Below are positions 8,757 through 54,764 of a stretch of 64,000 nucleotides of DNA, piece after piece. How positions within the stretch are numbered: position 1 is the first letter of the stretch; every line of letters starts with the position of its first letter. Source of the DNA: Clostridia bacterium (lineage in GTDB: Bacteria > Bacillota > Clostridia > Oscillospirales > CAG-272); NCBI GenBank assembly GCA_017628875.1, contig JAGBYG010000017.1, positions 14,622-78,621 on the forward strand, written 5' to 3'. Both the position numbers and the translations under genes were made by a program. The notes beneath the pieces were generated by a model that saw only the letters and a program-made list of their open reading frames with translations, searched no databases and was not told the origin of the DNA.

Positions 8757-8759
8757 AAA

Positions 8760-34032: not shown

Positions 34033-34038
34033 CTCTTC

Positions 34039-35265: not shown

Positions 35266-35397
35266 AATGAAGTCCTTTCTATTATTTCATTAAACTAAGT
35301 TAGATAAATCAATTAAAGCAACTCAAAAAAGGTTGCAACTCTATTAAAAGATCAACCTCGGACAATCCGCCACATCAACCAAAAGTTGTTTTTATTG

Positions 35398-36345: not shown

Positions 36346-36354
36346 ATAAGCCTC

Positions 36355-37326
36355 CTACACTAATATGATTCGCCACAATAAAATACTGTTAGCAATTATT
36401 AAATAAATCAAAATAGGAATAAATCTATTATTATTTCTGTATATTGTCTTTCCTAAAAAAATCAATTCACCCAGTAATAGTGTTGAAGTGATGCATACAT
36501 TTATCCACATTAAATCATCACCCCAAACAACCGAGAGTACGTACGAAATGATTAAAGCAAAAATTCCCGGTATAATTTTGGATTCTTTAAAAAATGCTTT
36601 GCTACTTTCATCACTATTTCTTGAACATAGGGCGTAAATAAAAATCAACAATAAAACTACACCAATAAACGTGCTGAATACCGAGTCCTTACCACTTTGA
36701 AATGCAGAAGAAAACAAATTAACAATCGGAACTAACAACAACGAACAAACACCCAAAAGAAGTATTTGTGCTAATCGCTTATGCCAATTTGACTTTGCTT
36801 TAGGTGGTGTGGTTGTATATGATTTGGTATCAGGTGGTACTGTTTTAGATGGTACTGTTTTAGGGGGTACTGTTTCTGATTTAACCGAGGATGTTCCTTG
36901 CGATGTCGACGTACGAATCGGTTTCGGAGCAATATAATAAGCATCATTTGCTACATATTTAGCCCTAATTCTAGCAGACACAGGCAATGACGTACACTCA
37001 GCAAAAGCCTTCATTCCAATACTTTCAAGCTCACATTCAGATATGATGCTTTTTAAATTACAGCAACCGCTAAAAGCTTCTCTCGAAATCTTTCGCACCT
37101 TATCGTGCAAAGTAACAGAATAAATATCAGTTCTCCCTTTAAAAGCACCTTCACCGATCACATTAAACTCTTTTGGAATCACCACGTTACCGGTCAAGCG
37201 TAATTTTTGCACTCTCTTGTTGGTTAATGTGCAAATTTTGTCCGAAACGCGCTCATATTCACAAACGATACACTTGCTTTCGGATTCTTCATTGTTTGTA
37301 GAACATATTGGACAAACCCAAGACAT
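36355..37326 (-). CDS. N-terminal zinc ribbon + BspA-type LRR + Pro-rich linker + C-terminal multi-TM domain
   Basis: MSWVCPICSTNNEESESKCIVCEYER; IGEGAFKGRTDIYSVTLHDKVRKISREAFSGCCNLKSI; TVPPKTVPSKTVPPDT; about 4 TM helices. Start moved to ATG 37326 (GAAGGAGA RBS). Confidence 0.7.
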   Translation of the reverse strand: MSWVCPICSTNNEESESKCIVCEYERVSDKICTLTNKRVQKLRLTGNVVIPKEFNVIGEGAFKGRTDIYSVTLHDKVRKISREAFSGCCNLKSIISECELESIGMKAFAECTSLPVSARIRAKYVANDAYYIAPKPIRTSTSQGTSSVKSETVPPKTVPSKTVPPDTKSYTTTPPKAKSNWHKRLAQILLLGVCSLLLVPIVNLFSSAFQSGKDSVFSTFIGVVLLLIFIYALCSRNSDESSKAFFKESKIIPGIFALIISYVLSVVWGDDLMWINVCITSTLLLGELIFLGKTIYRNNNRFIPILIYLIIANSILLWRIILV

Positions 37327-37353
37327 ACTAATCTCCTTCACTGAATATAATTG

Positions 37354-37875
37354 TTAAAGTCTAATTGCCATTCGTAAAACAACCAACATATCAGCTTTAA
37401 TAAATTGACTCATGCCATCTGCTTTATAAAATGTATATCCCTTTATAGCGTTCATTTCTGTTCTCTCCGAACGAACAAATCCCTTGCTCTTTATAACGTC
37501 AACATCAAACTTGATGTTGTGCTCAGGCCAAGGCTTTGCAAACCCTTTCTTTTCACGCGATGTCTTCTTTCTTTGTGAAAGTTTAACGCGCTCTTTCGGT
37601 TCACGAGATTCACGCGGAGCTCTTTCGCTTGATATACTTTTAATTATGTTGCCAATTATTTTTCCAATTTTGATGAAAATTTTTATAATTGTTCGAAAGA
37701 ATCCCTTTACAGATTCTATAACAACAGCAAAATCAGAAAAGACAATTTTTCCTTCGATGACCTCCGGCTCTCGTTCTCTAACACGAGATTTTGTTGGGCG
37801 ATCATATCCACACACAACACAACAAGTGCTTTCTTCCTCGTTTGAACTTGAACAATTCGAACACACCCAACTCAT
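37354..37875 (-). CDS. N-terminal zinc ribbon + TM/amphipathic segment + basic linker + C-terminal PWPEH repeat domain
   Basis: MSWVCSNCSSSNEEESTCCVVCGYDRP. The C-terminal 63 aa (FAKPWPEHNIKFDVDVIKSKGFV...) match the kinase C-terminal repeats. Start at ATG 37875. Confidence 0.6.
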   Translation of the reverse strand: MSWVCSNCSSSNEEESTCCVVCGYDRPTKSRVREREPEVIEGKIVFSDFAVVIESVKGFFRTIIKIFIKIGKIIGNIIKSISSERAPRESREPKERVKLSQRKKTSREKKGFAKPWPEHNIKFDVDVIKSKGFVRSERTEMNAIKGYTFYKADGMSQFIKADMLVVLRMAIRL

Positions 37876-37898
37876 TATCAATTACCTCTCAATTTAAA

Positions 37899-39449
37899 TT
37901 AGATTTTACGAGCCATCTTTTGAACGATAATCATCTCGACACGAATAAACTGACGATTACCATTCGAACGAATAAATTCATATCCGTTAATTCCGTTCAT
38001 CGTCTTCTGAACAGTAGCTACGTATCCTTTGGTGATAATAGCAGCTGTATCAAATTCGATTTTATGCTCAGGCCAAGGTTCTGCAAATTCTGAAACAGAA
38101 TCCTCGACATCAACCACAGGATCACTAGTTGCTTTTTTCTTAGCATACTTCATTGCGATCAGCATTTCAACCTTAAAGAAAGTTGACTGTGCATCTGCAC
38201 GATAAAGCTTATATCCCTTTATTCCGCTTCGGGTTTCGTTTTCGCTGGATACAAAGCCTCGTGATTTGAGTTTATCAATATCAAACTCGATATTGTGTTC
38301 TTCCCAAGGTGCCGCAAATCCGGTGGGTGCCGCAACCTTTGCATATCCGGCAGAAAGCATTTCCTCCTTTGAAAGAATCTGCTTTTTACCATTTTTAAAC
38401 AAAATTTTATACTTATTTTGAGATCCGGATATTGTTTTTTCAAGCTTTGCAATTTGCGCTGCATTAATTGCAGATTTATTTAATACAATACCGTGTTCCG
38501 GGAACGGTTCCTCAAGAATTGGGTCTCCATCGGATGTTTCCGGTGCCTGCAGGCGCTTAAGAACCTCTAAAGCAGTGGGACGATCGTTAGGATCAATGCT
38601 AAGCATATCCGAGATAAGCGAAATGTACTTAACACTTGTGATTTCAGGACTAATCTGCAATTCACAACCGCTGTTCAGAACAACCCAAGGATAAATTACC
38701 TTACCCTTATCTTTACGCTTCTGCAGCTTCTCTGTCAAGGAGACGGGTTCAGGGAATGCTCCTACAAAATAGAAATGATAGATCAAACCAAGCGAGAAAA
38801 TATCTGTCTTCTCGGTAATATGCTTCTTCATTTCCTCTGCTTCGTCCTCTGAATCAACGTATCTACCCAATTCAGGAGAATAATAGTCTATTGTTCCAAT
38901 AATCTCATCGGGCTTATTGTCAGCGGGATAGCTGCTATCAAAGTCAAGCATTTTTGCAACGTAGTTACCCGCAGAATTTCTTACAAGAAGCAAATTTTCA
39001 AGCTTCAAATCGCTGTGAATAATGTGTTTGCTATGTACACTTAACAAAGCTCCGGCAGCTGTTTTCATTAAAAGCTTCTTCGTATCAAGAGAAAGACTTG
39101 CAAGAATACCAACCAATTCTCTTTTAGGAATAGCACCTTCTACAAATTCAGATACCTCTACATAGTTATTGCCATCAATAAACTCGTCACAAGGAATAAC
39201 GATATTACCACCCGGACCGGCAATAGGTCGAATGCGAGTATTTACTGTTTTTCTTAAAGTTACAAAATCTTCAAAAAGCTTTTTGTTATGAGCAAAAGTT
39301 TTTGCATCCAAAGTTCCATTATTAATAGGAGCAACAGGCGTTTGATATTTCTTTAAAAAATATTTTTTGCCTCCTTTAGTTGCAGTTGCTATTTTACCAC
39401 AGGTACTATTTTCCCAATCGCCTATTATTTCATATCCGTGTATCGTCAT
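37899..39449 (-). CDS. Ser/Thr protein kinase (Hanks-type) with three C-terminal PWPEH repeats
   Basis: KKYFLKKY (Lys), HSDLKLENLLL (catalytic loop), LDFDSS (DFG variant), GTIDYYSPE. RBS AGGAGGAA. 20-nt overlap with the PP2C gene. Confidence 0.85.
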   Translation of the reverse strand: MTIHGYEIIGDWENSTCGKIATATKGGKKYFLKKYQTPVAPINNGTLDAKTFAHNKKLFEDFVTLRKTVNTRIRPIAGPGGNIVIPCDEFIDGNNYVEVSEFVEGAIPKRELVGILASLSLDTKKLLMKTAAGALLSVHSKHIIHSDLKLENLLLVRNSAGNYVAKMLDFDSSYPADNKPDEIIGTIDYYSPELGRYVDSEDEAEEMKKHITEKTDIFSLGLIYHFYFVGAFPEPVSLTEKLQKRKDKGKVIYPWVVLNSGCELQISPEITSVKYISLISDMLSIDPNDRPTALEVLKRLQAPETSDGDPILEEPFPEHGIVLNKSAINAAQIAKLEKTISGSQNKYKILFKNGKKQILSKEEMLSAGYAKVAAPTGFAAPWEEHNIEFDIDKLKSRGFVSSENETRSGIKGYKLYRADAQSTFFKVEMLIAMKYAKKKATSDPVVDVEDSVSEFAEPWPEHKIEFDTAAIITKGYVATVQKTMNGINGYEFIRSNGNRQFIRVEMIIVQKMARKI

Positions 39450-41538
39450 CTGTCATTCCTCCTATGTACATACAATATGTGAGATTATATTTTTCAAAAA
39501 GTGCTTTTTGCATCTCACATTTTTCTTTAACACTTTGAATCTTCTCTTTGAAATCGTTAATAATAGTTTTAGCTTCATTAACCAGAGTGTCATCAATTGC
39601 ATATTTCGGGTTGTCTATGACAGCAAGAATAACGTCTTTGTTATGTCTCTCCCAATAAGAGTTCCTTGACTCGTTAAAAACAACCTCTTTATCCTCAGTT
39701 TCCATTTTGGCAATGGTAGCGTTGGCTTCGCTAATTATTTCAAGCTCGTTTGCAATTTCCATTTTCTCGTCTTCCAAAATATCCATTTCAAAAACAGAAA
39801 TTTTACCACTCACAACCATCTCGGTAAGCTTTTTGATATCCTCTGGATTCTTATCGGCAAGCTTTTTGTTTTTAATAATATATTCATGTCTTAATTCAGT
39901 CAATTTTCTTATGATATCGAGCTTTTTAGAACGCAATCCGTTAAAGAAATGGAACAATTCATCCATTTTTTTCTCGCAATCTTCAATAAGCTGGAATGCA
40001 ATTTCATCGTAATCATCGAATGATGTTGGTAAGCCGATTTCTCCCACATCATTCAAAAGCATCGTTAAAGTAGTAACAGTGGCATCAAACTCGGTTTTGT
40101 ATCTTTGAATACGAGATATATAGTCATCTGCCGTTGCTTGATATTTGTTTTCCACACCATCGATTCTTGATAAACTAAATTTTTCAACTAAAGTATAGTT
40201 GGAATCAATAAATGTTTTAAACTTTATATAATTAGCCGCAATAACGTCAGAAATCGCTATAACTGCTGCATCAATGCGTTGCTTTTCAGAAGAAATCTTA
40301 TTATTGATTGCATTAATTCTATCCAAATATGGTGCATACTTGCCTTCTTTAATGTAATCAGAGCAATAATCTATAACTCCCTGCTCAGACGAAAACTTTT
40401 CTTTTAAAGATGCCAATTTGCTTGGGAATGTACGCTCATACTCTTCATACGCGGAAATGTAATCAACATCAAGCAAATCACTCATTCCATCAAAATATTC
40501 TGCATTCAAAACACTCATACGGTTGAGACAAGCTGCCTTAAAATCTTCAAACGATTCATAGCCAAATATCTTCATAGCAATTGTACTACTATCATCGTGG
40601 CGTCCATAATCCAAAAAGAACGAGGTCAAATATTCACTCATTTTCTCTGTGTCGTCTGAAGAAATAGCTCCTTCAAGAATTGTTTTCTCAAACGCCAACT
40701 GTGATATAAATTTGCCGGAATCAAAGCATCCGTCACTTGCATTGAACAGCACGCAGGGCTTTTCAAAGCTAAAGTAGTCACATCTTATATCAAACTCCGC
40801 ATTATCGTTCGCCTTGATATAATTTGTCATACCGCCATCTTTGCCTTCTTGATCTTCCAAAACCTGACACAAGCCATTTTTCTCTGACCAAACATAGGGG
40901 CGAGAGTCGCCCGCAGTAAGATAAATAGCTTCAACACTATTTTCCTGTTCAAGATAAATTGTAGCGCAAATAGTGCTTCCAAGCAAAGCAAGACCGGAAT
41001 AAGAAGACTCATAAATCAAATTTGCATTTTTTGCAATATGCTGAATCTTAGTTTGAATAAGCTCCTTAAAGTGCTTGCCCAATGTAGCCACATAAGATTT
41101 TTTCGCTTCTTCGTTTTCACACTCGAATAACGTTGAAAAAACTTTTTCAGCATTACAATTCTCGCTATAAAGCATTTCGTGGAGAATTATGGCAGTTACT
41201 ATTCTCGAAGCAAAATAGCCACTCTTCTTAATGTTATTGATATTATCTGTATAACAATCCTTTACGGCAAAAAGCTCAAAAAACGACTCCTTGACATAAT
41301 TCACAAACACTTCATTGCTGTAGTCTTCATAGACCCCGGCAAAAAGAGCATCCATCAACTTTTCGCTGTCAAATAATTCGGGAACGATTTTCTGATGGCG
41401 AATTGCGGCAGCACCACCCAATCCATCAGCAACAAAAATAATCTGTCCATCCACATACGGACGTGCGTCCTCTCCTTTATAAACAATAGTTCCATCAGCA
41501 CGAGTTTTTGATGATTGTCTGTAAACAGTTAATTCCAT
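39430..41538 (-). CDS. PP2C-family protein phosphatase with about 370-aa C-terminal coiled-coil region
   Basis: IFVADGLGGAAA, LTAGDSRPYVW and LFNASDGCFD motifs. The C-terminal half is heptad-rich and low in complexity. Confidence 0.8.
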   Translation of the reverse strand: MELTVYRQSSKTRADGTIVYKGEDARPYVDGQIIFVADGLGGAAAIRHQKIVPELFDSEKLMDALFAGVYEDYSNEVFVNYVKESFFELFAVKDCYTDNINNIKKSGYFASRIVTAIILHEMLYSENCNAEKVFSTLFECENEEAKKSYVATLGKHFKELIQTKIQHIAKNANLIYESSYSGLALLGSTICATIYLEQENSVEAIYLTAGDSRPYVWSEKNGLCQVLEDQEGKDGGMTNYIKANDNAEFDIRCDYFSFEKPCVLFNASDGCFDSGKFISQLAFEKTILEGAISSDDTEKMSEYLTSFFLDYGRHDDSSTIAMKIFGYESFEDFKAACLNRMSVLNAEYFDGMSDLLDVDYISAYEEYERTFPSKLASLKEKFSSEQGVIDYCSDYIKEGKYAPYLDRINAINNKISSEKQRIDAAVIAISDVIAANYIKFKTFIDSNYTLVEKFSLSRIDGVENKYQATADDYISRIQRYKTEFDATVTTLTMLLNDVGEIGLPTSFDDYDEIAFQLIEDCEKKMDELFHFFNGLRSKKLDIIRKLTELRHEYIIKNKKLADKNPEDIKKLTEMVVSGKISVFEMDILEDEKMEIANELEIISEANATIAKMETEDKEVVFNESRNSYWERHNKDVILAVIDNPKYAIDDTLVNEAKTIINDFKEKIQSVKEKCEMQKALFEKYNLTYCMYIGGMTDDDTRI

Positions 41539-41611: not shown

Positions 41612-41654
41612 GTAAAATACAAAGCGGGGCAGATGCGCAAATGCATCTGCCCCG
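41612..41654 (-). terminator. Rho-independent terminator between vWA gene and PP2C gene
   Basis: 12-bp GC-rich stem, CGGGGCAGATGC (41625-41636) with GCATCTGCCCCG (41643-41654), followed on the minus strand by CTTTGTATTTTAC. Confidence 0.75.
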
Positions 41655-41662: not shown

Positions 41663-42349
41663 TTAGAACGATCCGACCATCAGATCAATTGCGGATTGAA
41701 TATCAACATCTTCAAGACCGGTTCCTGCGGGAGAAAATGCAGGCCAGTATCTATTCCATGTGGTAATTTCCGTCCAAGGTTCCGCATTAGGAACAAAAGC
41801 AATGAGTCTTCCTGCTTTTGCCTGATATGTGCTGCTGAGTGTCTGATCTGTGCATTCCCACCAAGCGCCAAGCTGCGCGATATCTGCAGGCATACCTGCG
41901 GGATAAGATGCAGAGCCTGCACGCTCACCCAAAGGAAGTGCGGGAGCGTCAGAGAACATAAGGATCGCATGACGACGTCTGGAACCACCAGTGGTCCAAT
42001 CAGACTTAAGTGCAAGCGCAATAGCTTCAAGTGCATTTTCAGGGCGATCCCCACCACCTCTAGCTTCAATACTATTTACAAAAGCATTAAATTCTTCGTT
42101 CTGATCAGGAAGCATAAAGAACTGTGATTCAGTCATAGGCTCAGCATCACAACCATAATCTCTAAAAGAAATAACCTTAATTCTAAGCTGTGCTACCTCT
42201 TTGTCGTTTTCTTCCATTGCATCGAGGAATCTCTGGTAAAACGACATAGCGTTGCCCTTAACCTCGTCGATGATTGGTGACATACTAGCTGTAGCATCAA
42301 TACACATTACGATGTCAACATAATATTCACCCATTTGCTGTCCACTCAT
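41663..42349 (-). CDS. vWA-domain protein (TerY-like context), paralog B
   Basis: VDIVMCIDATASM (MIDAS-like DxTxS). Start moved to ATG 42349 behind a GGAGGAA RBS. 228 aa. Confidence 0.8.
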   Translation of the reverse strand: MSGQQMGEYYVDIVMCIDATASMSPIIDEVKGNAMSFYQRFLDAMEENDKEVAQLRIKVISFRDYGCDAEPMTESQFFMLPDQNEEFNAFVNSIEARGGGDRPENALEAIALALKSDWTTGGSRRRHAILMFSDAPALPLGERAGSASYPAGMPADIAQLGAWWECTDQTLSSTYQAKAGRLIAFVPNAEPWTEITTWNRYWPAFSPAGTGLEDVDIQSAIDLMVGSF

Positions 42350-42383
42350 TTTTATTTCCTCCATAATAAATAATTTTTTTGTT

Positions 42384-43070
42384 TTAAAAAGATCCAACCA
42401 TTAAATCAATGGCAGATTGAATATCAACATCCGGCAAACCTGTTCCTGCAGGAGAGAACGCAGGCCAATAACGATTCCAAGCTTGAAGCTCTGTCCAAGG
42501 CTCTGCATTAGGTACAAAAGCAACCAACCTTCCCGCTTTTCGCTGATAGGTACTTTCGAGTGTTTGGTCAGTTCCCTCCCACCAAGAACCAAGCTGCGCG
42601 ATTGTATTTGGCAGATTTGTTGGATAATTTGGGCAATCAGCCCTTTCGCCAAGCGCCAATGCAGGTGCATCAGAGAATACTAAGATGGCGTGACGTCTCT
42701 TAGCTCCCGAGGTTGTCCACTTTGATTTAAGTGCCAAAGCAATAGCTTCAAGAGCATTTTCAGGTCCATCTCCTCCACCGCAAGCTTCTATACCTGCAAC
42801 AAAGTTTCTAAATGCTGTGTTCTGATCCGGAAGGACAAAGAATTCAGATTCTACCATAGGTTCAGAATCACATATGTAATCTCTGAAAACTATAACCTTG
42901 ATTCTCAACTCGGAAACTTCCTTATCATTTTCTTCCATAGCATCTATAAACTTTTGATAAAACGACATAGCGTTGTTTTTTACTTCATCGATAATAGGAG
43001 CCATACTGCCAGTTGCATCGATACACATAACGATGTCAACACAATATTCTCCCATTCCTTGACCGTTCAT
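42384..43070 (-). CDS. vWA-domain protein (TerY-like context), paralog A
   Basis: VDIVMCIDATGSM. Start moved to ATG 43070 behind a CAGGAGGTG RBS. 228 aa, colinear with paralog B. Confidence 0.8.
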   Translation of the reverse strand: MNGQGMGEYCVDIVMCIDATGSMAPIIDEVKNNAMSFYQKFIDAMEENDKEVSELRIKVIVFRDYICDSEPMVESEFFVLPDQNTAFRNFVAGIEACGGGDGPENALEAIALALKSKWTTSGAKRRHAILVFSDAPALALGERADCPNYPTNLPNTIAQLGSWWEGTDQTLESTYQRKAGRLVAFVPNAEPWTELQAWNRYWPAFSPAGTGLPDVDIQSAIDLMVGSF

Positions 43071-43125
43071 ATTTTCACCTCCTGTCAACAATGACATTGA
43101 CATTTGTGTTCAAAATCTGAACCAA

Positions 43126-43605
43126 TTAAGCGTTTTCCTGCTCAAGGAACTGCTGAACAGTCATCATTCCTTTAGCAAGCATAAAGAATTTATCGTTATA
43201 CTGATCAACGGTAGAAGCAGCTACCATAATCATATATTCAAACAAATCTTCGCTAAGTGTGCTCTCTCGATAACTGGATGTCATTCTAAATATGATTTCA
43301 CCGTCTCTCAAATCATAATCGAAAGAACCGTCAACAAGACCATAGTTTGCAGCACATACTGCAATTGCTCCATCAACGCGCTTGTCCTCGGGCATATTGA
43401 AAGGCAACATTGAGATAAACTGAACTACTTCGTTTCTGGGCTTTACTACCATAATAAACTCCACCGGAAGGTCGTCACCCTTGATGCCGCTCTTGATAAG
43501 GAGTTTTTCTTCGTGCTTTTCATATTTCCAATCACGAGTATCTAACATTGTAACAAGGACGTCAAATACCTCTTTTGCTTTCTGCATGTTCATTTCTTCT
43601 GTCAT
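43126..43605 (-). CDS. YbjN-like (type III secretion chaperone-like fold) small protein
   Basis: DTRDWKYEKHEEKLLIKSGIKGDDLPVEFIMVVKP...VQFISMLPF...DGSFDYDLRDGEIIFRMTSSY resembles the YbjN family. Start moved to ATG 43605 (GGAGGAAG RBS). Confidence 0.5.
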   Translation of the reverse strand: MTEEMNMQKAKEVFDVLVTMLDTRDWKYEKHEEKLLIKSGIKGDDLPVEFIMVVKPRNEVVQFISMLPFNMPEDKRVDGAIAVCAANYGLVDGSFDYDLRDGEIIFRMTSSYRESTLSEDLFEYMIMVAASTVDQYNDKFFMLAKGMMTVQQFLEQENA

Positions 43606-43654
43606 TTTTTCTTCCTCCAAAAAAATATTAATAACTGGTCTAACCAAATTATTT

Positions 43655-46600
43655 TTAGTTTGTTTCCGTGTTTACCACGGTTCTGTTAAAGATGTCATCA
43701 ATCTCATTTTCTTTGAGATGATTCTTCTCCGTCAAGGCATCTACCATTGTATCAATGGCACACTTGTTTGCCTCGATAATATTAATTGCTTTAGTAAGCT
43801 CTTCATTGAGCATCGAATTTACCTTGTCGCGAAGACCCTGATTCATATCTCCCTTTATCGTACCGACGTCAATGTATGACATTCCAATGGTTTGATCCAT
43901 TCCATAATTGCAAATCATCTGCTCAGCAATCTTGGTCGCTGAATACAAATCTCCGCTGGCTCCGGTAGATATTCCATCTTCCGCGCCGTAGTATACGATT
44001 TCAGAAGCACGACCGCCAAGTGATGTGCGAATTTTGCTGAGGAGCTCGGATTTAGTGTACAATCCCTTCCCTTCAGAATCACCGTGCTGCATATATCCTC
44101 CATGATCACCGCGTGCAACGATAGTCAAATATGAGGGCTTTTCTCCGCTCAACCAACAGATCAATGCATGACCCGCTTCGTGACGAGCAGTACGCATTAA
44201 TGTATCAGGATTCCACTCCTTCTTCTCGCCGCCATTAAACGTTTCAAATGCCTCTTCAAACTCAGCATCACTTACTATACCCGTTTCAGATCGAATAGCA
44301 CTTCTCAACGCCATTTCAAACACCGATTCAAGCTGTGCCAAGCTCATTCCGGTTGAACGCAAAGCTATATTATTCAACTGCTCGGGGCTGAGTTTAACCG
44401 ATGGATGCTTACTAACTTTCATTTCAAGGTAGCGCTTGCGTTCATCTTTGTTTGGAAGATCCACATAAATTCTACGGTCGAATCTTCTCAACAGCGCAGC
44501 ATCTAAGCTCTTTCCTCTTTCGGAATCAACGCCATAATTAGTTGCGGCAAGAACAAACACAGGTTTTGAAGTATCTGTATTAAATCCATCCATTTCAGTT
44601 AAGAAAGATGTCAGGACATCACTGGTATGATCTTCCGATCCCAACATATTTCTATCCTTTCCGATGGCATCTATTTCATCAATAAATACAATGGACGGTG
44701 CATACTTACGAGCCGCATTAAATAACGAGTGAACTGCTTCGGCTCCTTCTCCCACAAATCGTTTTAAAAATTCGTTGCCTTCAGCTTTCAAGAACGTAAC
44801 TCCCGATTCTCCTGCCATTGCTTTTGCAAGAAGCGTTTTACCGGTTCCGGGAGGTCCGTAAAGAAGAACGCCCTTGGGACTTCGAACACCCTTGCGCATA
44901 TACTTAATCGGATTTTTTAAGTACTCCACAAAATATTTCAACTCTTGCTTAGCATCTTCAGCACCGATCACATCGTCAAAATGAAGATCGGGTTTTGATA
45001 CGTTATCCAAAATACTCTTGGAATCATCCGCATCCGTAACCAAGCCCAAACGAAAATCAAACAAATTAATATTCGCAGTTTTTTTATTCTTGGACATTGT
45101 TTGAGATGTCTTATAAGATAATGCCTTATTCTCACGCGCTAATTTTAACATATGGGCGCGTTGGTGTGCCACCTTACATTTTGCAATAACCTGCTTTGGA
45201 AAAGCATTGTTCTTAGCATTGGCTGTAAGCACATCCCTAACACCCAATTTTGCAAAAGAAAGAAATTCTTCTTGGCTGATATCATCCTCTTTAGATTGAA
45301 TGATATAAACCGGTAACGAATATTTCTCTAACACATAATTCAAGAAATCGTGTCCCACAGAATCTATATCTTCTGCATTTAATACGTTAATATCGGTATC
45401 CTTAAGACCACAGTTCACATCACAAAGAACAATACTAATATCATAATTGAACAAAATCTCTTTTGCATCGTGTATACTTTCTGCAAAGTGGCACGTTACT
45501 TGTCCACCAAGCTTTTGTTCACAAACACTTGCTATTTCTCCACTCGCAAACACCAAAACCTCGGGCTTTGAAGGATTTTCAAACATAGCAGCAACGTTAT
45601 CGTCAAGACCATTTAGAGGAATGTTAATGTTAATCTGCTCCAATCCCTCAACAATACCTGCGCCTTTTTGCGAGGATAAAAGTCTAAAGAGCTCATAGAG
45701 TTCTTCATAGAAAAACGCATTTGCTCTTCCTTTTACTGTTCGAGCATCCGCCTTTCCACCCTCAGAAAACATAATAGCGCTTGGAACCTTATCATCGACG
45801 TTAATTTTTATTCCCGTTGATTCTTCAAGCCCCTTAATATTATTATCAAGCTCTTTTTTTGCGATTGTATACAAATTACTTGCTTCTAAGTGGTTAAACA
45901 TAACCACATTTCCGGAAGCAAAACGAGAACAAATTGCCGGAGGGAACAAAGGAGCATTGGTTCTGGGATTAAGGTCCGACGCCAAGGCCTTTAAAACCTT
46001 CTTTCTCGGAACAGCAGAAAGATTCACAATAGAAGGATCCTCATACAAGTTTCTTCCAACGTTGGTTGTAATAATAATAACCGCATTGGAAAATGACACT
46101 TCTTCATTTGTATAATTATCGCGCAAGCGACCTGCATCAAGTATTTGCAAGAACAGATGAATAACGGTCAAATTGGCCTTTTCAATTTCATCGAAAAGCA
46201 AAACACAATCAGGATTATTGGCAACAAATCCCGTAACGTTACCCGGTTTACACGCTTTATAACTCTTATCCGTACCACAGAATTCAAAAGTAGACTGCTC
46301 GTTTGAGTATTCGCTCATATCAAATCGCTTGTAGGGCAATTTTAAAGCTTCCGCTACCTTTTCTGCCAAGAAAGTTTTTCCCACTCCGGGAGGGCCCGCA
46401 AACAAAAATGTTGCCTGCGGTTTTTTTGTTCCTTTACGTGAGCACGCCATAAGTCTTGACTGAAAATATCCTGATACAAACGTATTCACAGCTTGATCCT
46501 GTCCAAATACATTTTCAAGCAACATATTTTGAATGTCTCGAGTGGATTGAACAATGTTTGATATTTTCTGAATTCCAACCACCTCTTCTAATGCTTGTGA

Positions 46601-47140
46601 TCCGTCAGCATTGTCGGCGAGAGAGTCTGTACCATCCAACCAAGACTGCAAATCTGCAATCCATTTTTCCTCATCGGAGGCAGATTTATCCTTTTCACTT
46701 TTTTGAGCTGGCTGTGTCAAAATATGCTTATTAATCGAAACCGTTGGCTCTGCAATAATCAATTCAAGATATAAAACGGTATCAATGGTATCTCGTCCGT
46801 TTTTCTTCGCTTGTTGTTCGGCATTCTGAGGAATTTTTCCGAACATAAGCTCATCCATAAAAGAACTGTATCCTGCAGAGATTACATCTCCGGAGATGGC
46901 TTCTATTACCTTGCTTTTGTTTATGTTGTATTTCTTCAGCAACTCACATACGGCTGCCAATTCTTTTTTTGATTCTTCACTGTCTATTTCGCTGGGAATT
47001 TTATTGCTGTCTATCTCGCTAATCGTTTTCAACACCGAAATAATGAAATAGTTTGCAGATAATGCTTTTTTACCGTCATTTTTTCTCAATGTCTCTGCGC
47101 ACGCAATCAAATATTCAAGCAAGCAACTTTTTTTAATCAT
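43655..47140 (-). CDS. Soluble multi-domain AAA+ protease: Clp-N-like region + ClpB/ClpA D2-type AAA + receiver-like domain + FtsH-type AAA + M41 metalloprotease
   Basis: VFGQDQAV...FLFAGPPGVGKTFLAE...RFDMSEY...VLLFDEIEKA...LQILDAGRLRD (AAA_2). VLVFASGE...IVLCDVNCG...VYIIQSKED (REC-like). LLYGPPGTGKTLLAKAMAGE...IVFIDEIDAIG...ATN...LLRRFDRR (FtsH AAA). ARHEAGHALI (HEXXH at 44166-44186). No TM helices. Confidence 0.85.
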   Translation of the reverse strand: MIKKSCLLEYLIACAETLRKNDGKKALSANYFIISVLKTISEIDSNKIPSEIDSEESKKELAAVCELLKKYNINKSKVIEAISGDVISAGYSSFMDELMFGKIPQNAEQQAKKNGRDTIDTVLYLELIIAEPTVSINKHILTQPAQKSEKDKSASDEEKWIADLQSWLDGTDSLADNADGSQALEEVVGIQKISNIVQSTRDIQNMLLENVFGQDQAVNTFVSGYFQSRLMACSRKGTKKPQATFLFAGPPGVGKTFLAEKVAEALKLPYKRFDMSEYSNEQSTFEFCGTDKSYKACKPGNVTGFVANNPDCVLLFDEIEKANLTVIHLFLQILDAGRLRDNYTNEEVSFSNAVIIITTNVGRNLYEDPSIVNLSAVPRKKVLKALASDLNPRTNAPLFPPAICSRFASGNVVMFNHLEASNLYTIAKKELDNNIKGLEESTGIKINVDDKVPSAIMFSEGGKADARTVKGRANAFFYEELYELFRLLSSQKGAGIVEGLEQININIPLNGLDDNVAAMFENPSKPEVLVFASGEIASVCEQKLGGQVTCHFAESIHDAKEILFNYDISIVLCDVNCGLKDTDINVLNAEDIDSVGHDFLNYVLEKYSLPVYIIQSKEDDISQEEFLSFAKLGVRDVLTANAKNNAFPKQVIAKCKVAHQRAHMLKLARENKALSYKTSQTMSKNKKTANINLFDFRLGLVTDADDSKSILDNVSKPDLHFDDVIGAEDAKQELKYFVEYLKNPIKYMRKGVRSPKGVLLYGPPGTGKTLLAKAMAGESGVTFLKAEGNEFLKRFVGEGAEAVHSLFNAARKYAPSIVFIDEIDAIGKDRNMLGSEDHTSDVLTSFLTEMDGFNTDTSKPVFVLAATNYGVDSERGKSLDAALLRRFDRRIYVDLPNKDERKRYLEMKVSKHPSVKLSPEQLNNIALRSTGMSLAQLESVFEMALRSAIRSETGIVSDAEFEEAFETFNGGEKKEWNPDTLMRTARHEAGHALICWLSGEKPSYLTIVARGDHGGYMQHGDSEGKGLYTKSELLSKIRTSLGGRASEIVYYGAEDGISTGASGDLYSATKIAEQMICNYGMDQTIGMSYIDVGTIKGDMNQGLRDKVNSMLNEELTKAINIIEANKCAIDTMVDALTEKNHLKENEIDDIFNRTVVNTETN

Positions 47141-47310
47141 AAAACAAATATCCTTTCGGGGTTTTGTTTATAGGGTCAAATCTATGAATTACCTGACACT
47201 AATAACTGAACATTTATAGTGTACTACACTTTACGACTTTTGTCAACAAATTTAGCCATTATTATTTGGCAATATTGATTATATTGGGACAAAAATCCAA
47301 CTATTTTTTG

Positions 47311-49101
47311 TTATTTTGTTCCAACACTGCTATCTTTCCTTTTTTCTTCTTCGGTTAAAGAAGAAAAATCAACAAGGTCATGATGCATTTTTGCCAAATC
47401 ATTTCGACTGTTTTTATCGTTAGAGCCGCTAAAAATGTATCCTTCTGAACGCATATACGCATTCCAACGTTTATGCTCCAAAACCTCAATAATATGGCGT
47501 TCTTCATCGGATAGTTCTGCTTCTGCCTTGTTAGCTCCGGGAATACCACGTTCCACTCTCGCCTTCATATGTATTGCAGACGCAATAGACGATCTGTAGT
47601 TATATTCATAATTCCAAAAATCATCCTCTTTGCCCCATTTCAAGTGACGTTGCAACGCATCTTGTTCAAGTTCGGAATCAATAATTACATCCATAGCGTA
47701 GATTGCTTCTCTATCTCCAATAAAATCTATATCGTAATCTTGACCCTTGAAATTTTTAACACCCATTAAGGCATTTTTTTGTTGAGTATTATAAATAATC
47801 GCTTGTATTACAGGATGAATTTTCATTCTTTCAAAATACATTCTTAAATTCACCGCTGTTCTAATATTCGCTTCATCATTACCTAATGCAACAAGAACAT
47901 AAGTTGCATTAGTAATCTTGTGAATTTCTTTAACGAATGAAATTGACTCAACATCAAAGCCGGGATGAACTGTTATCTTATAACAAGCTTCACCGTCCAC
48001 AGCAACACCATTATACTCATCGGACATTAATTCGGGAGCTAATGCCATAAACTTTTCTTCTGCTAAAGGATCCTTGTCAAAGGCATTGATTTCCAAATTG
48101 TAACCGTCCATTTGACCAAACCAAGAAAGTGCTTTAACCATCTCGGTACCGTGACGTCCCATACCAATAACAACTGCAGAAATATCCTTTGTGCCTTCAT
48201 CGTTCTCACGAGCAGAATCAAATATGGTTTGGCCGCGCTCATAAAGAACACGGTTAATCAATGACTGAACTTCATTAATTCTGCGAACCTTAACAACACT
48301 GTCATCTGTCGAGCACAACAGCAATTCGCTTTCAACGTTTGTAGAGAAAATGTAAAGATTGGTATTCTCTCTTTGCTTATAACGTTCAATCAGCTTCAAT
48401 CCCTGATTTAAATTCTCTGTTTCATCAATTCCTATTGTGAAAAAGGAAATTGTTTTTTTAGAATAATGTCTTTTGAAATTAATAACGAGTATGTCTTCCT
48501 TAAAGCAAATAGCTCGTAGTTTTTTTGCCTCCTCAATCAATTCAAACATACTTTCTTCATTTTCGCCAAATACGTCAGTAAAAACGATTACAGCTTTTTT
48601 GCTATTAGATCTAATATTATTTGCAAGTGCAAGAGATCTGTCATTTAATTCAGAAAATACGTACACATCTTTAAAAAATGACCCGTAATATCTGATATAC
48701 GCAAATATATTTTTGAGCATAGACAATACAAAACTAAAAGTTAATATAGGTGCTATAATAAGCAATATTGCTGACCAAATTTGATAGAGCATATAAAGGT
48801 TATTGGGGCAAAAAGCCAATCCTTCTTTTATAACTCCAAATTCACAGCCACCCATAAATATTTGTATTGAATTGAAGACCGAAAGCAAAAAAGCTCTCCA
48901 TCCTGCTCCTCGAACGGATGCCACAGGCATGTAATGTATAGGTATAAACATCACCACAGCAGCAATAAGCACTGCCCCGCAAAACGCCCATAACAATTTG
49001 AACCTATGCTTTTTTGTATAATTGCTATTGTTGACAGCAATAGAAATTGCACCCATTAAAACCAAGGCACTAATCGAGATTATTAAACATATTAACCACA
49101 T
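47311..49101 (-). CDS. Polytopic membrane protein with cytoplasmic Rossmann-like domain(s) and C-terminal RyR domain
   Basis: About 5 N-terminal TM helices. VVIGMGRHGTEMV (GxGxxG). EHKRWNAYMRSEGYIFSG...DLAKMHHDLVDFSSLTEEEKRKD (RyR-like). Start moved to ATG 49101 (GGAGG RBS). Confidence 0.65.
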   Translation of the reverse strand: MWLICLIISISALVLMGAISIAVNNSNYTKKHRFKLLWAFCGAVLIAAVVMFIPIHYMPVASVRGAGWRAFLLSVFNSIQIFMGGCEFGVIKEGLAFCPNNLYMLYQIWSAILLIIAPILTFSFVLSMLKNIFAYIRYYGSFFKDVYVFSELNDRSLALANNIRSNSKKAVIVFTDVFGENEESMFELIEEAKKLRAICFKEDILVINFKRHYSKKTISFFTIGIDETENLNQGLKLIERYKQRENTNLYIFSTNVESELLLCSTDDSVVKVRRINEVQSLINRVLYERGQTIFDSARENDEGTKDISAVVIGMGRHGTEMVKALSWFGQMDGYNLEINAFDKDPLAEEKFMALAPELMSDEYNGVAVDGEACYKITVHPGFDVESISFVKEIHKITNATYVLVALGNDEANIRTAVNLRMYFERMKIHPVIQAIIYNTQQKNALMGVKNFKGQDYDIDFIGDREAIYAMDVIIDSELEQDALQRHLKWGKEDDFWNYEYNYRSSIASAIHMKARVERGIPGANKAEAELSDEERHIIEVLEHKRWNAYMRSEGYIFSGSNDKNSRNDLAKMHHDLVDFSSLTEEEKRKDSSVGTK

Positions 49102-49162
49102 AAAAATTACCTCCAATTTTCATTTTTTATTTAATATTAATTAAATAAATATATTAGTAATC

Positions 49163-49316: not shown

Positions 49317-50018
49317 TTATAAGTAAAATTCTTGCATATCATCCAACCGCAACAGCGCTGGAGACAAACCTATTGCAGCACCGGTATCAACGTCAATCCA
49401 CGTGCTTGTTTTTAAAATTTTACCTTTAAATTTATCTCCATAAAAATATGTTGGTGTGTGTCCTAAAATGGTAATAAACTCAAGGGAATACTGGGTTGAT
49501 AGATTCGGACGACTCCACAATAAATCATTTTCAGAACACTCGGTTAGTTTTTTTATCTTCCCGCTTTCACTAAGACCAAGACCCGCGTGAACAAGCAAAT
49601 AGTTTTTCCCACCAACCGAAACCGTATCATATAACGGAGTTTCTTGCAAATATTCCAAAATCATTTGCCTCATTCCAGAAGTTTCCTTAGAAAGCTCCGC
49701 GATGGTTGCTTCGCCGCCATTTGCTTGCCATACATTTAGCCATCTGACCTTTCTCATATTAAAATTGTCAATTGATTCATCGGTAATTTCGTCAAACAGG
49801 AAGTCGCAGGAAAGTAACATCTGCTCGTGATTGCCGCGAATCAACTTAATGTTGGGCTCAAACATAATGTATTTAATTAATTCCACACCGTGTTCCCCAC
49901 GGTCTATGATATCGCCCAAGACAAATAAATAATCATCAGGACCAAAATTGACCTTATTTAAAAGTTCTTTGATTTTTTCAATTGATATTCCGTGCCAATC
50001 GGAAGAAACATATACCAT
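49317..50018 (-). CDS. PPP-family (lambda/PrpA-like) Ser/Thr protein phosphatase
   Basis: SSDWHG, LGDIIDRGE and RGNHE motifs. ATG 50018 lies 5 nt after AGAGG. The track ORF starts at GTG 50024. Confidence 0.85.
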   Translation of the reverse strand: MVYVSSDWHGISIEKIKELLNKVNFGPDDYLFVLGDIIDRGEHGVELIKYIMFEPNIKLIRGNHEQMLLSCDFLFDEITDESIDNFNMRKVRWLNVWQANGGEATIAELSKETSGMRQMILEYLQETPLYDTVSVGGKNYLLVHAGLGLSESGKIKKLTECSENDLLWSRPNLSTQYSLEFITILGHTPTYFYGDKFKGKILKTSTWIDVDTGAAIGLSPALLRLDDMQEFYL

Positions 50019-50142
50019 ATACACCTCTATTATTTTTGTATTTATCTCTTATATAATCGTTGCATCTTAGCAAGTGTAAATATTATATCATTGCCTTCAA
50101 ATCAAATAAAAAGGGGGGCGATATTTTCCTCAAATTGCAAAA

Positions 50143-50206: not shown

Positions 50207-53200
50207 TCAGAGTTTTTCAAGCTCTTCCTTCTTTTTTTTCTGCAAAGTCATAAGCTCAGCAACAAATATTTTAACCCCTTTCATTAAAGAAAATGTTTCT
50301 TCTGTTTGCTTAAGAAAATCCCCTATAGTGCGAATTTTATTATTTGCAAGAATTTGTGTCTTACTCTGATCCAACCCCAACACCTTTATATTTTGCGCAA
50401 GATATTCTTCACGTGTCATTTTGCCCGCTGTTTGAGATGGATTTTTTGCAGGAGCAGACTCAACCTGTTTTTTCTCTTGAGGTTGGAATGTTGTTTTAGG
50501 CTGAGACTGGGGTTGAGGTGTAGCTTTAGTTGGAATATTTAGTAATCGCGCTAAAGTGATATCAATATTATCTATTTCTTTAGGATTGGAAATCGTAATC
50601 ACATCCAGCATATTACCTCTTTGACGCTGCATCTCATTGTTTGAATTATCGCTACTTTGTTGTTCAACAGTATCTGCAATTAAAACAGGCATGCAATTAG
50701 TGCTAAATTGATTTGCAAGAGATGACAATTTAAAATAATAACCCTGATCAATATTTTCAGTTGCCTTTGCCTCAACCAACAAGCCTGCAAATCCCTTAGT
50801 AATAATAATGTCAAACTCGCTCTTTACAGGGGTACCCTCCCAATTAATTTCATAGCTTGTAGCAACATCATCAAACAAACCACTCTTCAAACACTTGTGA
50901 TAAATATATATTTCAAGAATATTTCCGGCATTGGTCAATAGCTTTTTGATTCGTTTCGTTGCATAAGTAAAACTAACAAATCTATTGTCCTCCCCAGACT
51001 CAATATAATCGGTAATAAATGAGCGATTTTCAAGCCATTGTAACAATTTTTTAATGTTGTCAACTTGATTTACTTTGCCCTTCAGTTCAACGTTTTGAAC
51101 TGTAAGATAATCAAAAGAAACAACTACAGAATATGGAGTTTTAACGAACTCGATGCTTTCGGGTTGACTCAGCACATAAGGATCTGCCATAAAGCTTTTA
51201 ATCTTTGCCGAAAGTGATTTCGGTGCATAGATATTAACTTCACAGGAATCGGTTGTATAGAAAAGCACTTCAGATTCTTTGGTGAAAACACCAACGTCTA
51301 TCATTGTGGAAATAAATTTTTGAACTCCATCATAAGCAATTGCGGGCACCAAAAATCTGTACTTGATACAGGGATTGTTAGCCTTTTCAATATCTGTGTT
51401 AATCGTCATGATCTTATCTTCTGATTTGTGATAATCTTCAAGCAATCCGCACATTTTTTTCCACACAAATTCTCTCTTTCGATATGCTTCTTTCCACAAT
51501 GCCTCATAATCATTATAAAATGCCGTGGGAGATTCCAAATAACCCTTTGAGTTTTTGGATGCAAACATATCCGAAATTTTTAAATACTGATCCGTCCTAA
51601 TAAATTTCAAAAACTCACAGTTTACCGTTTCATAAAACTTTCGCGTATTTATGTCAAATCGATAGTGGGGATATTTCGAATAAACCCCGGCGCCCAGAAG
51701 AATACCGGAAAGATAAGTATCATTTTGTTCTGCTGCATCAAATCGAAGTTTGGTATTAATTACATCATAAACACATTGTGCAACGCAAGAATTATTTTGA
51801 TATTCTTTGATGATAATCTTTTTAATTCTGGAATCCAGTCTAAAAAGCTCGGTTTTCATTTGTTCAACGGCTTTGCGGATTTTTTCGTCCTTGCAATGTG
51901 TTATAACAAAATTTATTTTTGCCGCAATGGTTTTTTCGCGCATATAACTCAAAGTGTAATACAATGCATCTTTAAACTCTTCTATTTGGCTTATTTTCTT
52001 AATATCAAACAAGTATGTAATTTGAAAAGGATTTACAACAGTTGCTGCCGCAACGTTTTCAAATATTTTAGTATTTGCGCCACACGAGAACGGAATAAGT
52101 AAATGGATATCCCTTCTATATGTCAAAATGAACGGAATATATTTAACCAAATCCGCATCATAATTCTTATAATCCGTATAACGCATGCTCTTTAATATTA
52201 TTGCAACACGACTATCTATCAGAGTTATAAGCGCCTTGGCAGTTGATATGTCCTGTGCATTAAGAGCTTCAAGTGATTCTAATAATACTCTTTTCAGCTT
52301 ATTGTACTCTCTTGCAGAATTACTATTTCCGTTCCACAATAACGACAAACAAGAATACCATTCAGAAAATGCTATGCTTGCAGGAGCACTTTTACTCGCA
52401 ATAGTTCTAAGTTGAAGCATCGACGAATCCAACAAGATGTTCTTTTTCTTCCAACTATTAGCTGCGTTCATATAAACTTGATGAAGTCTAACCGACATTT
52501 GATCAAGATCATCAAGAGTATCCAAATCCTTTTTTTCTGCATTATCCCATTTTGACAATGTCCAAGCTGCAGTTTGAAGGGGTGCGCTAGCTGTGCTTCT
52601 TAACAAACAAATATGTCGTTTAGCTTTTTTATCATTCGGTTCTCCTGTCACACAAGATTCCAAGTCCTGATTGCATGCCCAACCGGCGCATATCTTTTCA
52701 CACACCCATCTTCTATGTTCAAGCGCTATCAATTCATTTTTAATATGATTTGAAGATGCGTTCATTTTTCTATAACACTCAGTAGCGGCATTAGTCAAAT
52801 CATCTAAAGCAATACCGAAGCTATAAAGTTTATATTTAATAGAAACCACATTCGAAAAAGATGCATTATAGTTATATTGCTCCTTAAATTTGGCGTATGA
52901 TTTTTTCAAATCAATATTTAATCCGGATTCCCAAATCAAATGTGCATTAAATGCCATTCTCTCAATGTCTTTATATAATGCTTCGGAGGCAATATCATCA
53001 CACATATATACAGGATTACCAAGAGGTTTTCTACCAAGGTGTTCTCCATCATATGCAAAATTAACTGAACATTCCCTAATGTCCTTCATAACTGAAGTAA
53101 TGGCTTTAGCAACTCCTTTATTAAGAGAATCATCACCAAGAGCAACAAAAACATAGTGTGCCTTGTTATGTTTCGATACTATTTCTAAGGCAATATCTTT

Positions 53201-54712: not shown

Positions 54713-54764
54713 ATACAAATCCTTTCTTTAGTTGCTTTGTGATAATTTCAAAACACTGTTTCTA

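Follow-up and report, generated by a model that had tools for sequence, protein, structure and literature searches.

AAA+ proteases follow a few fixed designs, namely ClpXP/ClpAP, Lon, HslUV, FtsH and PAN/proteasome. FtsH normally carries its membrane anchor in cis and its M41 domains build a hexameric disc; two-ring unfoldases are known from Clp and Cdc48. The N-domains of Clp ATPases dock adaptors such as ClpS and MecA, the receiver-domain proteins RssB and CpdR control ClpXP, and the kinase McsB marks proteins for ClpC-dependent degradation. IetA is a single-ring ATPase of ~370 residues that works with a separate subtilase. The FtsH-ternary systems of actinobacteria, deltaproteobacteria and planctomycetes combine a MoxR–vWA (von Willebrand factor A) pair with an extra, inactive FtsH-type AAA+ module placed before the active one (Kaur, Burroughs, Iyer & Aravind 2020, eLife, PMC7159879). 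Here we describe a protease, called BIG in this text, which is encoded in a 64,000-nucleotide stretch of a Clostridia bacterium (Oscillospirales, CAG-272; assembly GCA_017628875.1, contig JAGBYG010000017.1, positions 14,622 to 78,621 of the forward strand). This whole stretch is referred to as the window, and coordinates are counted from its first letter. BIG is a conserved AAA+ motor made of rings from two clades, joined to a built-in protease in one membrane-free chain.

The gene is an uninterrupted open reading frame (ORF) of 1161 codons at 43655..47140 on the minus strand, beginning with an ATG behind an AAAGGA ribosome-binding site. From profile matches and an AlphaFold2 model of the whole protein (built from 47 homologues; mean predicted local distance difference test score, pLDDT, of 81), the order of parts is a helical N-domain, a disordered linker, a Clp/Hsp100 D2-type AAA+ ring, a receiver fold, a helix with a β-hairpin, an FtsH-type AAA+ ring and an M41 protease. 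Residue positions are the true numbering with Met1 counted. The gene and its parts are as follows.

43655..47140, minus strand: protease gene BIG, a soluble 1161-residue fusion of Clp-D2, receiver-fold, FtsH-AAA and M41 parts (ORF and translation)
46712..47140, minus strand: N-terminal eight-helix domain, residues 1-143, a putative adaptor or substrate-recognition head (AlphaFold2, pLDDT ~88-93)
46580..46711, minus strand: disordered acidic and Ser-rich linker, residues 144-187 (pLDDT <50, unconserved in the homologue alignment)
45638..46573, minus strand: Clp/Hsp100 D2-type AAA+ module, residues 190-501 (Pfam AAA_2, NCBIfam ClpA)
45218..45637, minus strand: receiver-fold (pseudo-receiver) domain, residues 502-641 (AlphaFold2 and Foldseek)
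45041..45214, minus strand: connector between receiver fold and FtsH ring, made of a long helix (residues 643-669) and a long two-stranded β-hairpin (672-700) (AlphaFold2)
44228..45019, minus strand: FtsH-type (classical clade) AAA+ module, residues 708-971 (Pfam AAA, TIGR01241)
43679..44209, minus strand: M41 zinc metalloprotease domain, residues 978-1154 (H987-E-A-G-H991 and Asp1064)

A preliminary description of this stretch, drawn from its letters alone, had proposed a soluble fusion protein and quoted nine motifs for it. All nine were located in the translation: GPPGVGKT (249), DMSEY (274), LLFDEIEKA (314) and LQILDAGRLRD (331) in the first ring, IVLCDVNCG (570) in the middle segment with Asp574 as its central Asp, GPPGTGKT (762), VFIDEID (818) and RRFDRR (885) in the second ring, and HEAGH (987) in the protease. 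The solubility claim also holds. With a Kyte-Doolittle cut-off of 1.6 for a transmembrane (TM) segment, the highest 19-residue mean in BIG is 1.23 and no window reaches the cut-off, nor is there a TM segment in the AlphaFold2 model; in contrast, the 601-residue protein encoded just upstream (P601) peaks at 2.87 and reaches the cut-off in 42 windows.

The first ring was said to be of Clp D2 type, and the profiles agree. Pfam AAA_2 aligns with residues 240-372 (E 4e-35) and NCBIfam ClpA with residues 199-457 (E 6e-48); since the ClpA match covers model positions 447-690 and the ClpB match to the N-terminal ATPase of BIG covers model positions 559-799, it is the D2 module of Clp/Hsp100 proteins that the ring resembles. 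The NCBIfam ClpV model likewise matches through its D2 region. Residue conservation was scored across the 47 homologues of BIG, and in this ring Walker A K255, Walker B D317/E318, pore-loop Y294, sensor-1 N360, R406 and sensor-2 R467 are invariant. The second half of the protein is equally clear, and the canonical FtsH AAA module and M41 protease that had been proposed for it were both recovered: Pfam AAA on residues 758-894 (E 7e-49), the FtsH model TIGR01241 on residues 707-1147 (E 3e-112) and Pfam Peptidase_M41 on residues 983-1150 (E 1e-29), the last with Foldseek matches to FtsH, AFG3L2 and YME1. In the second ring K768, D821/E822, N868 and the arginines R885/R886/R889 of the second region of homology are found in 47 of the 47 homologues, and the pore loop has an aromatic residue (F or Y) at 795 followed by V-G. 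The zinc site of the protease (H987, E988, H991 and the third ligand D1064) is invariant to the same extent. This invariance of the catalytic residues of both rings and of M41 indicates that selection maintains enzymatic activity in the two motors and in the protease, and BIG appears to be an intact, probably regulated unfoldase-protease.

An intact set of motors and protease is also in favor of a housekeeping role, in which a soluble FtsH paralogue with a disaggregase-like ring would clear misfolded or aggregated protein in the cytosol, with the small YbjN-family protein encoded beside it as a general holdase. The Clp D2 ring is indeed of the type seen in ClpB/ClpG disaggregases. The whole-protein model returned FtsH, AFG3L2 and YME1 in Foldseek, and sequence matches in the PDB are to FtsH and to the D2 rings of Cdc48/p97, with FtsH chains at E ~1e-76. 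An ordinary FtsH can nevertheless be ruled out, as BIG has no TM segment and its TIGR01241 match reaches 376.5 bits against an equivalog cut-off of 600.

We then estimated how widely this architecture is distributed. Full-length homologues, 53-83% identical to BIG, fall into more than 120 clusters (at 90% identity) and lie on independent contigs; the few that are annotated, as 'AAA family ATPase' or 'FtsH', belong to metagenome-assembled genomes (MAGs) of Clostridia, Oscillospiraceae and Ruminococcaceae. A scan of species genomes (one genome per species), with an alignment of the D2 small domain as query, found relatives in 208 of 185,579. All 80 retrieved loci are in Clostridia MAGs from animal and human guts, among them Oscillospiraceae, Acutalibacteraceae, Lachnospiraceae, Faecousia, Lawsonibacter and Acetatifactor. 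The full-length homologues on many independent contigs and the 208 species genomes rule out an assembly chimera; the architecture searched for is a real family. A phage, plasmid or viral origin was also considered and rejected, as none of the phage and plasmid records or predicted viral structures carries the architecture. No specific Pfam, NCBIfam or PADLOC family was found for BIG and a literature search returned no description, so that the earlier statement that no described equivalent is known stands and, as far as searched, the architecture is previously undescribed. The very patchy distribution speaks against a housekeeping protease. Two loci have two protease copies a few kb apart (L061 and L080), and two MAGs have two loci each (JAZQKN01 with L053/L054, JAFSCD01 with L068/L069); the neighbors of L068 and L069 are identical, and assembly redundancy is possible for this pair. 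The double copies point to paralogue expansion of the family, and paralogue duplications within loci likewise count against a housekeeping role.

Between the two rings lies a five-stranded α/β domain (502-641). Residues 495-705 were modelled separately (pLDDT 92), and the top 50 PDB matches of this model in Foldseek were all receiver domains or receiver-containing proteins, including AdeR, ArcA, PmrA, RssB and KdpE (E down to 5e-6). The TM-scores (template modelling scores, normalized to the target) were 0.60-0.79 for isolated receiver chains and lower for multi-domain chains, mostly with root-mean-square deviations of ~3-4 Å. At the sequence level the resemblance disappears: a Pfam scan of BIG at E <=10 gave no Response_reg match, and hhalign of the middle domain against CheY and Spo0F gave probabilities of <1%, although in the non-significant alignment the invariant Asp574 pairs with Spo0F Asp54. 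Asp574 stands at the end of β3 in 47 of the 47 homologues and is followed by an insert with the invariant residues D591, S594 and G596. The rest of the receiver pocket is not conserved: position 533 is Asp in 21 of 47, positions 534-535 and 616 are variable, and no Lys follows β5. The window has no histidine kinase gene near BIG. With the acidic pair, Thr/Ser and Lys not conserved, the domain is degenerate rather than a canonical phospho-acceptor and classical His-Asp phosphotransfer is unlikely; the unconserved pocket and the lack of a sequence-profile match rule out a canonical two-component receiver. Of the CheY-like segment with a phospho-acceptor-like Asp in the preliminary description, therefore, the fold and the Asp were confirmed (by Foldseek and by the 47/47 conservation), whereas the canonical phospho-acceptor was not. 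The helix and hairpin that follow share a conserved motif, KLARENKxLxYKTxQT. Receiver, helix and hairpin together make a family-specific module: when 1.84 billion representatives were searched with its profile, only 246 proteins matched, and the majority have 1100-1240 residues with the module at the same position.

The helical head at the N-terminus is the least conserved part of BIG, with a mean column identity of 43% versus 57% overall, and its hidden Markov model (HMM) detects 72 of 76 close relatives and only 24 of 100 distant representatives. It had been described as a Clp-N-like helical head, of which the helical part is right (eight helices in the AlphaFold2 model) and the Clp-N part has no significant sequence match. 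Pfam gave no Clp_N at E <=10, hhalign against ClpC-N was not significant, and a PDB profile search with the head gave Hsp104-N as the best match at E 0.57 only. When the head was aligned by hhalign with five approximate Clp N-domain sequences, P was 0.009 over residues 8-38 versus 0.87 in a reversed control. Homology to Clp-N is, consequently, a hint that is unproven. Eleven unusually long family members were examined: six have an N-terminal Ser/Thr kinase (two of these with a detected TPR repeat), one has a NADAR domain, one has a C-terminal RNase H1 N-terminal domain and three have unclassified N-terminal extensions. The kinase, NADAR and RNase H1 variants include the metagenomic proteins P0203, P0210, P0244, P0261, P0269, P0147 and P0250. 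The long variants align to BIG only from residue ~144-196 onwards, mostly from ~190, which indicates that the helical N-domain is the part that is swapped and that this position may serve as an exchangeable input slot. A fast-evolving and exchangeable N-terminus on a constant motor-protease core is what would be expected of a specificity or input module. The same fast-evolving, exchangeable N-terminus is a point against the housekeeping explanation, and so are the fusions to kinases and NADAR.

The genes around BIG were considered next. On the minus strand they run in the order 1503-residue kinase, PPP phosphatase, P601, BIG, YbjN, vWA, vWA, 702-residue PP2C-like protein and 516-residue kinase, with two putative transcription signals among them.

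50207..54718, minus strand: 1503-residue Ser/Thr kinase with a C-terminal Card1-like or PD-(D/E)xK nuclease-like domain (Pfam Pkinase 2e-19)
49317..50024, minus strand: PPP-family (calcineurin-like) Ser/Thr phosphatase (Pfam Metallophos 3e-16; NCBIfam PRK11439 2e-13)
47311..49116, minus strand: P601, with a multi-TM N-terminus, a Rossmann-like middle (VIGMGRHG) and a C-terminal RyR-like domain, adjoining BIG upstream
47218..47246, minus strand: promoter-like site TTGACA-17-TACACT in the 170-nt gap between P601 and BIG (consensus match only)
43126..43605, minus strand: small YbjN-family protein, type-III-secretion-chaperone-like (Pfam PF10722)
42384..43103, minus strand: vWA protein 1, with a MIDAS (metal ion-dependent adhesion site)-like DATGS (Pfam VWA_4 9e-11)
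41663..42397, minus strand: vWA protein 2, a paralogue of vWA protein 1 (Pfam VWA_4 8e-12)
41625..41654, minus strand: strong intrinsic-terminator-like hairpin, a 12-bp stem with 9 GC, directly after the second vWA gene
39430..41538, minus strand: 702-residue protein with a PP2C-like N-domain and a long coiled-coil region (NCBIfam Stp1_PP2C E 1e-3, below cut-off)
37899..39449, minus strand: 516-residue Ser/Thr protein kinase with a C-terminal tandem repeat (Pfam Pkinase 1.5e-21)

The YbjN-like protein named in the preliminary description matches PF10722 at 35.6 bits (cut-off 22) over profile positions 3-124 of 126, and its start is probably the ATG at 43605 behind a GGAGG site, giving 159 residues. 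The two vWA genes said to follow it were equally confirmed by their VWA_4 matches. The promoter-like site upstream and the terminator-like hairpin after the second vWA gene suggest a protease–YbjN–vWA–vWA transcription unit, and BIG is probably co-transcribed with these three genes. P601 has a Rossmann-like GxGxxG region and a weak Pfam TrkA_N match, there is no Pfam or NCBIfam family for the protein, and its C-terminus aligns with the small RyR family by hhalign (probability 94.7%, E 6e-8). The 702-residue protein has PP2C-like motifs (VADGLGG, GDSRPY and SDGCFD, read by eye) within its first ~330 residues and a C-terminal half that is probably coiled coil. The C-terminus of the 1503-residue kinase matches Pfam Card1_endonuc (3e-3) and PADLOC CARF_PDDEXK (4.5e-10), and its middle region is without assignment; a kinase–nuclease fusion is an unusual combination. 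In the 516-residue kinase, residues ~390-516 form two repeats of ~75 residues (PWxEHxIEFD…GY…) without a family match, which may be a ligand- or nucleic-acid-binding tandem.

To see which of these neighbors recur, ORFs were predicted in 84 loci and grouped into clusters, and HMMs of the clusters were then used for searching; loci were counted when both flanks extended for 2 kb or more, which left 51. P601 is the commonest immediate neighbor (present in 28 of 51, adjacent in 23), and YbjN, often as two tandem copies, is present in 27 and adjacent in 19. An RyR protein of ~96 residues (Pfam RyR 4e-36) is present in 19 and adjacent in nine, and a Card1-like protein of ~418 residues (Pfam Card1_endonuc 1e-5) is present in 15 and adjacent in 10. 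Only 5 of the 51 loci have none of these four, of which the preliminary description had named YbjN alone, and the partner genes are always co-directional with the protease gene. TerB, TerD, M50, a 1735-residue transglutaminase-domain protein, DUF1292 and ADP-ribosylglycohydrolase (ARG) occur sporadically. The vWA, 702-residue and kinase set is present in 5 of 51 loci and adjacent in none, being limited to the closest relatives (~10% of loci); in three relatives with called genes, YbjN was directly downstream of the protease gene in all three and the vWA/702-residue/kinase set occurred only in the 67%-identical one. A vWA–PP2C–kinase set as the core partner of the protease was hence rejected, and the earlier suggestion of vWA capture is not supported as a core feature. 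In nine of the 51 loci (e.g., L027, L038, L034 and L055) a gene pair accompanies YbjN, encoding a ~300-residue protein and a ~90-residue protein with Cys/His motifs; that this is a sigma/anti-sigma pair is only a guess, as the larger protein has no more than a faint sigma70-ECF match (E 0.02).

These neighborhoods bear on several explanations of what BIG does. For the housekeeping protease, some loci do place the gene among metabolic genes (pyr, Feo, tRNA synthetase) and YbjN has been called a protein stabilizer; the recurrent RyR, Card1-like, TerB and vWA-kinase neighbors are against it, and together with the patchiness, exchangeable head, fusions and duplications noted above they leave the housekeeping explanation distinctly unlikely. 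The tight co-directional pairing with YbjN, often in two copies, could alternatively be that of an abortive-infection-type toxin, the protease being an effector that, when released, degrades essential host or phage proteins and YbjN its inhibitor or antitoxin. The conflict-type neighborhood fits this, as does the existence of AAA+/protease effectors in defence systems, to one of which, PADLOC IetA, BIG has similarity (E 8e-46). But YbjN is missing near ~45% of family members, which would leave the toxin unguarded, and the YbjN superfamily is known for peptide-binding chaperones and not for protease inhibitors (PMC9503650), so that we regard a toxin as unlikely. The fold of YbjN, which resembles type III secretion system (T3SS) chaperones (PMC9503650), and the membrane protein often found adjacent could even suggest an export-related unfoldase whose rings strip and unfold cargo for translocation, with YbjN as its secretion-type chaperone. 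An invariant, intact M41 chamber placed after the motors would destroy that cargo, however, and no secretion-system genes recur in the neighborhoods; we consider export most improbable.

P601 raises a further explanation, namely that it supplies the missing membrane anchor in trans and that BIG processes membrane or membrane-proximal proteins when P601 binds a nucleotide ligand. Its rank as the commonest immediate neighbor (adjacent in 23 of 51), its several TM helices and its RyR-like C-terminus are consistent with this, RyR domains being reported to bind ADP-ribose (ADPR)-type nucleotides (PMC13232231). On the other hand, P601 is absent at 45% of loci and, in the window, a promoter-like site separates it from the protease gene, which makes a P601-tethered protease quite improbable.

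The explanation to which we give about an even chance is that BIG serves conflict or stress systems as a self-contained unfoldase-protease module, gated by a signal and with YbjN for its likely adaptor. By analogy with FtsH and with the two-ring unfoldases Clp and Cdc48, six BIG chains would assemble so that the Clp/Hsp100 D2-type ring is stacked over the FtsH-type ring, which feeds the M41 chamber. The variable N-terminal domain would take hold of substrate at the top, and the substrate would then be threaded through both pore-loop rings and cut. The degenerate receiver fold and the helix/β-hairpin collar between the rings would act as an allosteric gate that couples or uncouples them; it is the position and the degeneracy of the fold that argue for gating or ring coupling, and not phosphotransfer, as its task. 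The adjacent YbjN would hand a partly unfolded client to the N-domain or, alternatively, restrain the protease. Since the YbjN/T3SS-chaperone superfamily consists of peptide-binding chaperones (PMC9503650), an adaptor is the likeliest role and a restraint the next; the members of this superfamily are proposed to bind modified proteins in conflict systems centred on ARG, in which vWA proteins and calcineurin-like phosphatases are used as well (PMC9503650). The docking of ClpS and MecA on Clp N-domains offers a known parallel for the adaptor role. With YbjN missing at ~45% of loci, it cannot be obligatory in cis. In gut Clostridia the module would form part of variable and accessory gene sets for conflict or stress signalling, and in the window it is flanked by the TerY-P-like vWA/PP2C-like/kinase set.

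Two kinds of input can be proposed for such a signal-gated module. The first may come from pairs of Ser/Thr kinases and phosphatases, in some cases fused to the protease itself, and the kinase fusions together with the kinase and phosphatase genes around BIG argue for Ser/Thr phosphorylation as one input, for which McsB-marked degradation by ClpCP is a precedent in logic. The preliminary description had envisaged a regulated unfoldase-protease acting on vWA-captured or phosphorylated targets. Its unfoldase-protease is supported by the invariant catalytic residues and the receiver fold between the rings and its vWA capture is not, while its phosphorylated targets are supported in part, in that two Ser/Thr kinases are encoded around BIG in the window, along with a PP2C-like protein and a PPP phosphatase, and 6 of the 11 long variants have a fused kinase. 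Probable sensors of ADPR-derived nucleotides (the RyR proteins, the RyR-like P601 and the NADAR fusion) may provide further inputs. RyR-domain proteins bind or cleave the immune signals 2'/3'-cADPR (cyclic ADP-ribose) (PMC13232231), and with the RyR partners, the NADAR fusion and ARG homologues in the window and three loci, ADPR-derived signals may be the second input, as a lead only. The ARG homologues of the three loci (L015, L030 and L039) are one to three genes from the protease gene. In the window, at 29209..30935 (minus strand), an ADP-ribosylglycohydrolase (Pfam 1e-67) adjoins a calcineurin-like phosphatase, as in ARG-centric systems (PMC9503650). Two TIR-domain proteins bracket the island (24873..26189 and 62443..63306, both plus strand), the second fused to Sel1 repeats and with a ThsB-like TIR match; they are possible sources of ADPR-derived signals.

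Several observations weigh against a signal-gated module. The receiver fold is without the metal-binding acidic pair, Thr/Ser and Lys that sensing would require in a canonical receiver, and YbjN is missing from the flanks of a large share of loci (~45%). The neighborhood statistics come from crude ORF calling in 84 loci on MAG contigs. No PADLOC defence-system model fits the whole system, the matches being generic AAA similarities to IetA, DolB and PDC-M37B. Finally, a single preprint of 2026 (PMC13232231) provides the link between RyR and ADPR, and it deals with phage proteins, not with these bacterial ones.

In the remainder of the window, after the 516-residue kinase, 30970..37881 (minus strand) encodes TerD, a transglutaminase-core protein, an M48 peptidase, a 408-residue protein without a match, a Sel1-repeat protein, a leucine-rich-repeat/Zn-ribbon membrane protein and a 175-residue protein without a match, and a similar Sel1/transglutaminase/TerD run follows the kinase in locus L001. 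Upstream of the 1503-residue kinase, proteins of 575 residues (54765..56492, minus strand) and 854 residues (57144..59708, minus strand) have no Pfam or NCBIfam match, and a regulator of HTH_17/LuxR type lies beside them at 60364..61587. The left third (1582..19200, minus strand) is a glycan-utilization cluster with GH3, GH43, two SASA-type esterases and an ABC sugar transporter; such an ordinary cluster is indicative that the island is chromosomal and belongs to a fibre-degrading gut bacterium.

Compared with known systems, BIG resembles FtsH, AFG3L2 and YME1 in its C-terminal 450 residues, which form a complete FtsH cytosolic region with Asp as the third ligand; the identity to Aquifex and Thermotoga FtsH is ~37%, and the best structural matches of BIG are to this group of proteases. 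Unlike FtsH, BIG has neither TM helices nor an extracytoplasmic domain, and ~700 extra residues precede this region, among them the receiver fold and a second AAA+ ring, which is from a different clade. With the class I Clp/Hsp100 proteins (ClpA, ClpB, ClpC and ClpV) it shares a D2 ring with a Tyr pore loop, a sensor-2 Arg and a D2-type small domain, and the same logic, in which two stacked rings come after a recognition domain at the N-terminus. It differs from them in lacking the D1 ring (only residues 1-189 precede D2) and the middle domain, in having an FtsH-type second ring, and in a protease that is covalently attached instead of a docked ClpP. The FtsH-ternary systems are similar in having an extra AAA+ module N-terminal to the active FtsH-type one, nearby vWA proteins and a conflict context. 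The extra ring of BIG, however, is of an active Clp-D2 type, the hosts are Clostridia and vWA proteins are only occasional neighbors; no MoxR/AAA_3 was found among the window ORFs scanned, and membership of the Kaur et al. (2020) systems was ruled out by this and by the active Clp-type first ring.

For the regulatory parts the comparison with RssB, CpdR and McsB is based on established knowledge. As in RssB and CpdR, a receiver fold is tied to the control of an AAA+ protease, and the RssB receiver is among the Foldseek matches; these are separate proteins with canonical pockets, whereas the fold in BIG is degenerate and inserted between the rings. As in McsB–ClpCP, kinases are genetically coupled to, and even fused with, the protease, but McsB is an arginine kinase and the kinases here are Hanks-type Ser/Thr kinases. 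The TerY-P triad consists of the vWA protein TerY, a PP2C and a Ser/Thr kinase (Anantharaman 2012, Gao 2020) in the summary given in PMC10542128. Going by that summary, the window genes (vWA, vWA, PP2C-like, Ser/Thr kinase) have the same composition and order, with TerD further downstream; the vWA and PP2C-like proteins are without a PADLOC match, however, the PP2C assignment is weak and the triad occurs at ~10% of BIG loci. The FtsH-type AAA+ region of BIG matches PADLOC IetA (E 8e-46) and NCBIfam IteA (2e-40), but the IteA score is 139 against a cut-off of 510 and no IetS-like gene is found here. In PADLOC-DB v2 only generic AAA and kinase similarities were obtained (IetA, DolB, PDC-M37B, PD-T4-6 and mad6), and none for YbjN, vWA, P601 or the 702-residue protein.

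The neighbors (kinases, phosphatases, vWA, RyR, Card1-like, TerB/TerD, ARG and NADAR) suggest regulated proteolysis as a signalling or immune output in gut Clostridia that are abundant but uncultured; the family is small and an immune role remains a lead from gene context. Conceivably, the family is the proteolytic effector of unrecognized Clostridial immune or stress systems, in which a Ser/Thr kinase (from a nearby gene or fused in cis) or an ADPR-derived signal would mark or license targets, YbjN and the swappable N-module would select them and the receiver fold would gate their passage into the protease, which is a tentative and rather doubtful extension. If true, bacteria would have here a phospho- (or ADPR-) degron machine that follows the McsB–ClpCP logic with other parts in a single chain. 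In essence, BIG is FtsH-like downstream and Clp/Hsp100 D2-like upstream, and by the defining criteria of either family it is a member of neither. It is a conserved natural design that places motors of two AAA+ clades on a built-in protease, drops the anchor and inserts a receiver fold between the rings, and it would offer a structural case for substrate hand-over between heterologous rings and for gating by an inter-ring domain.

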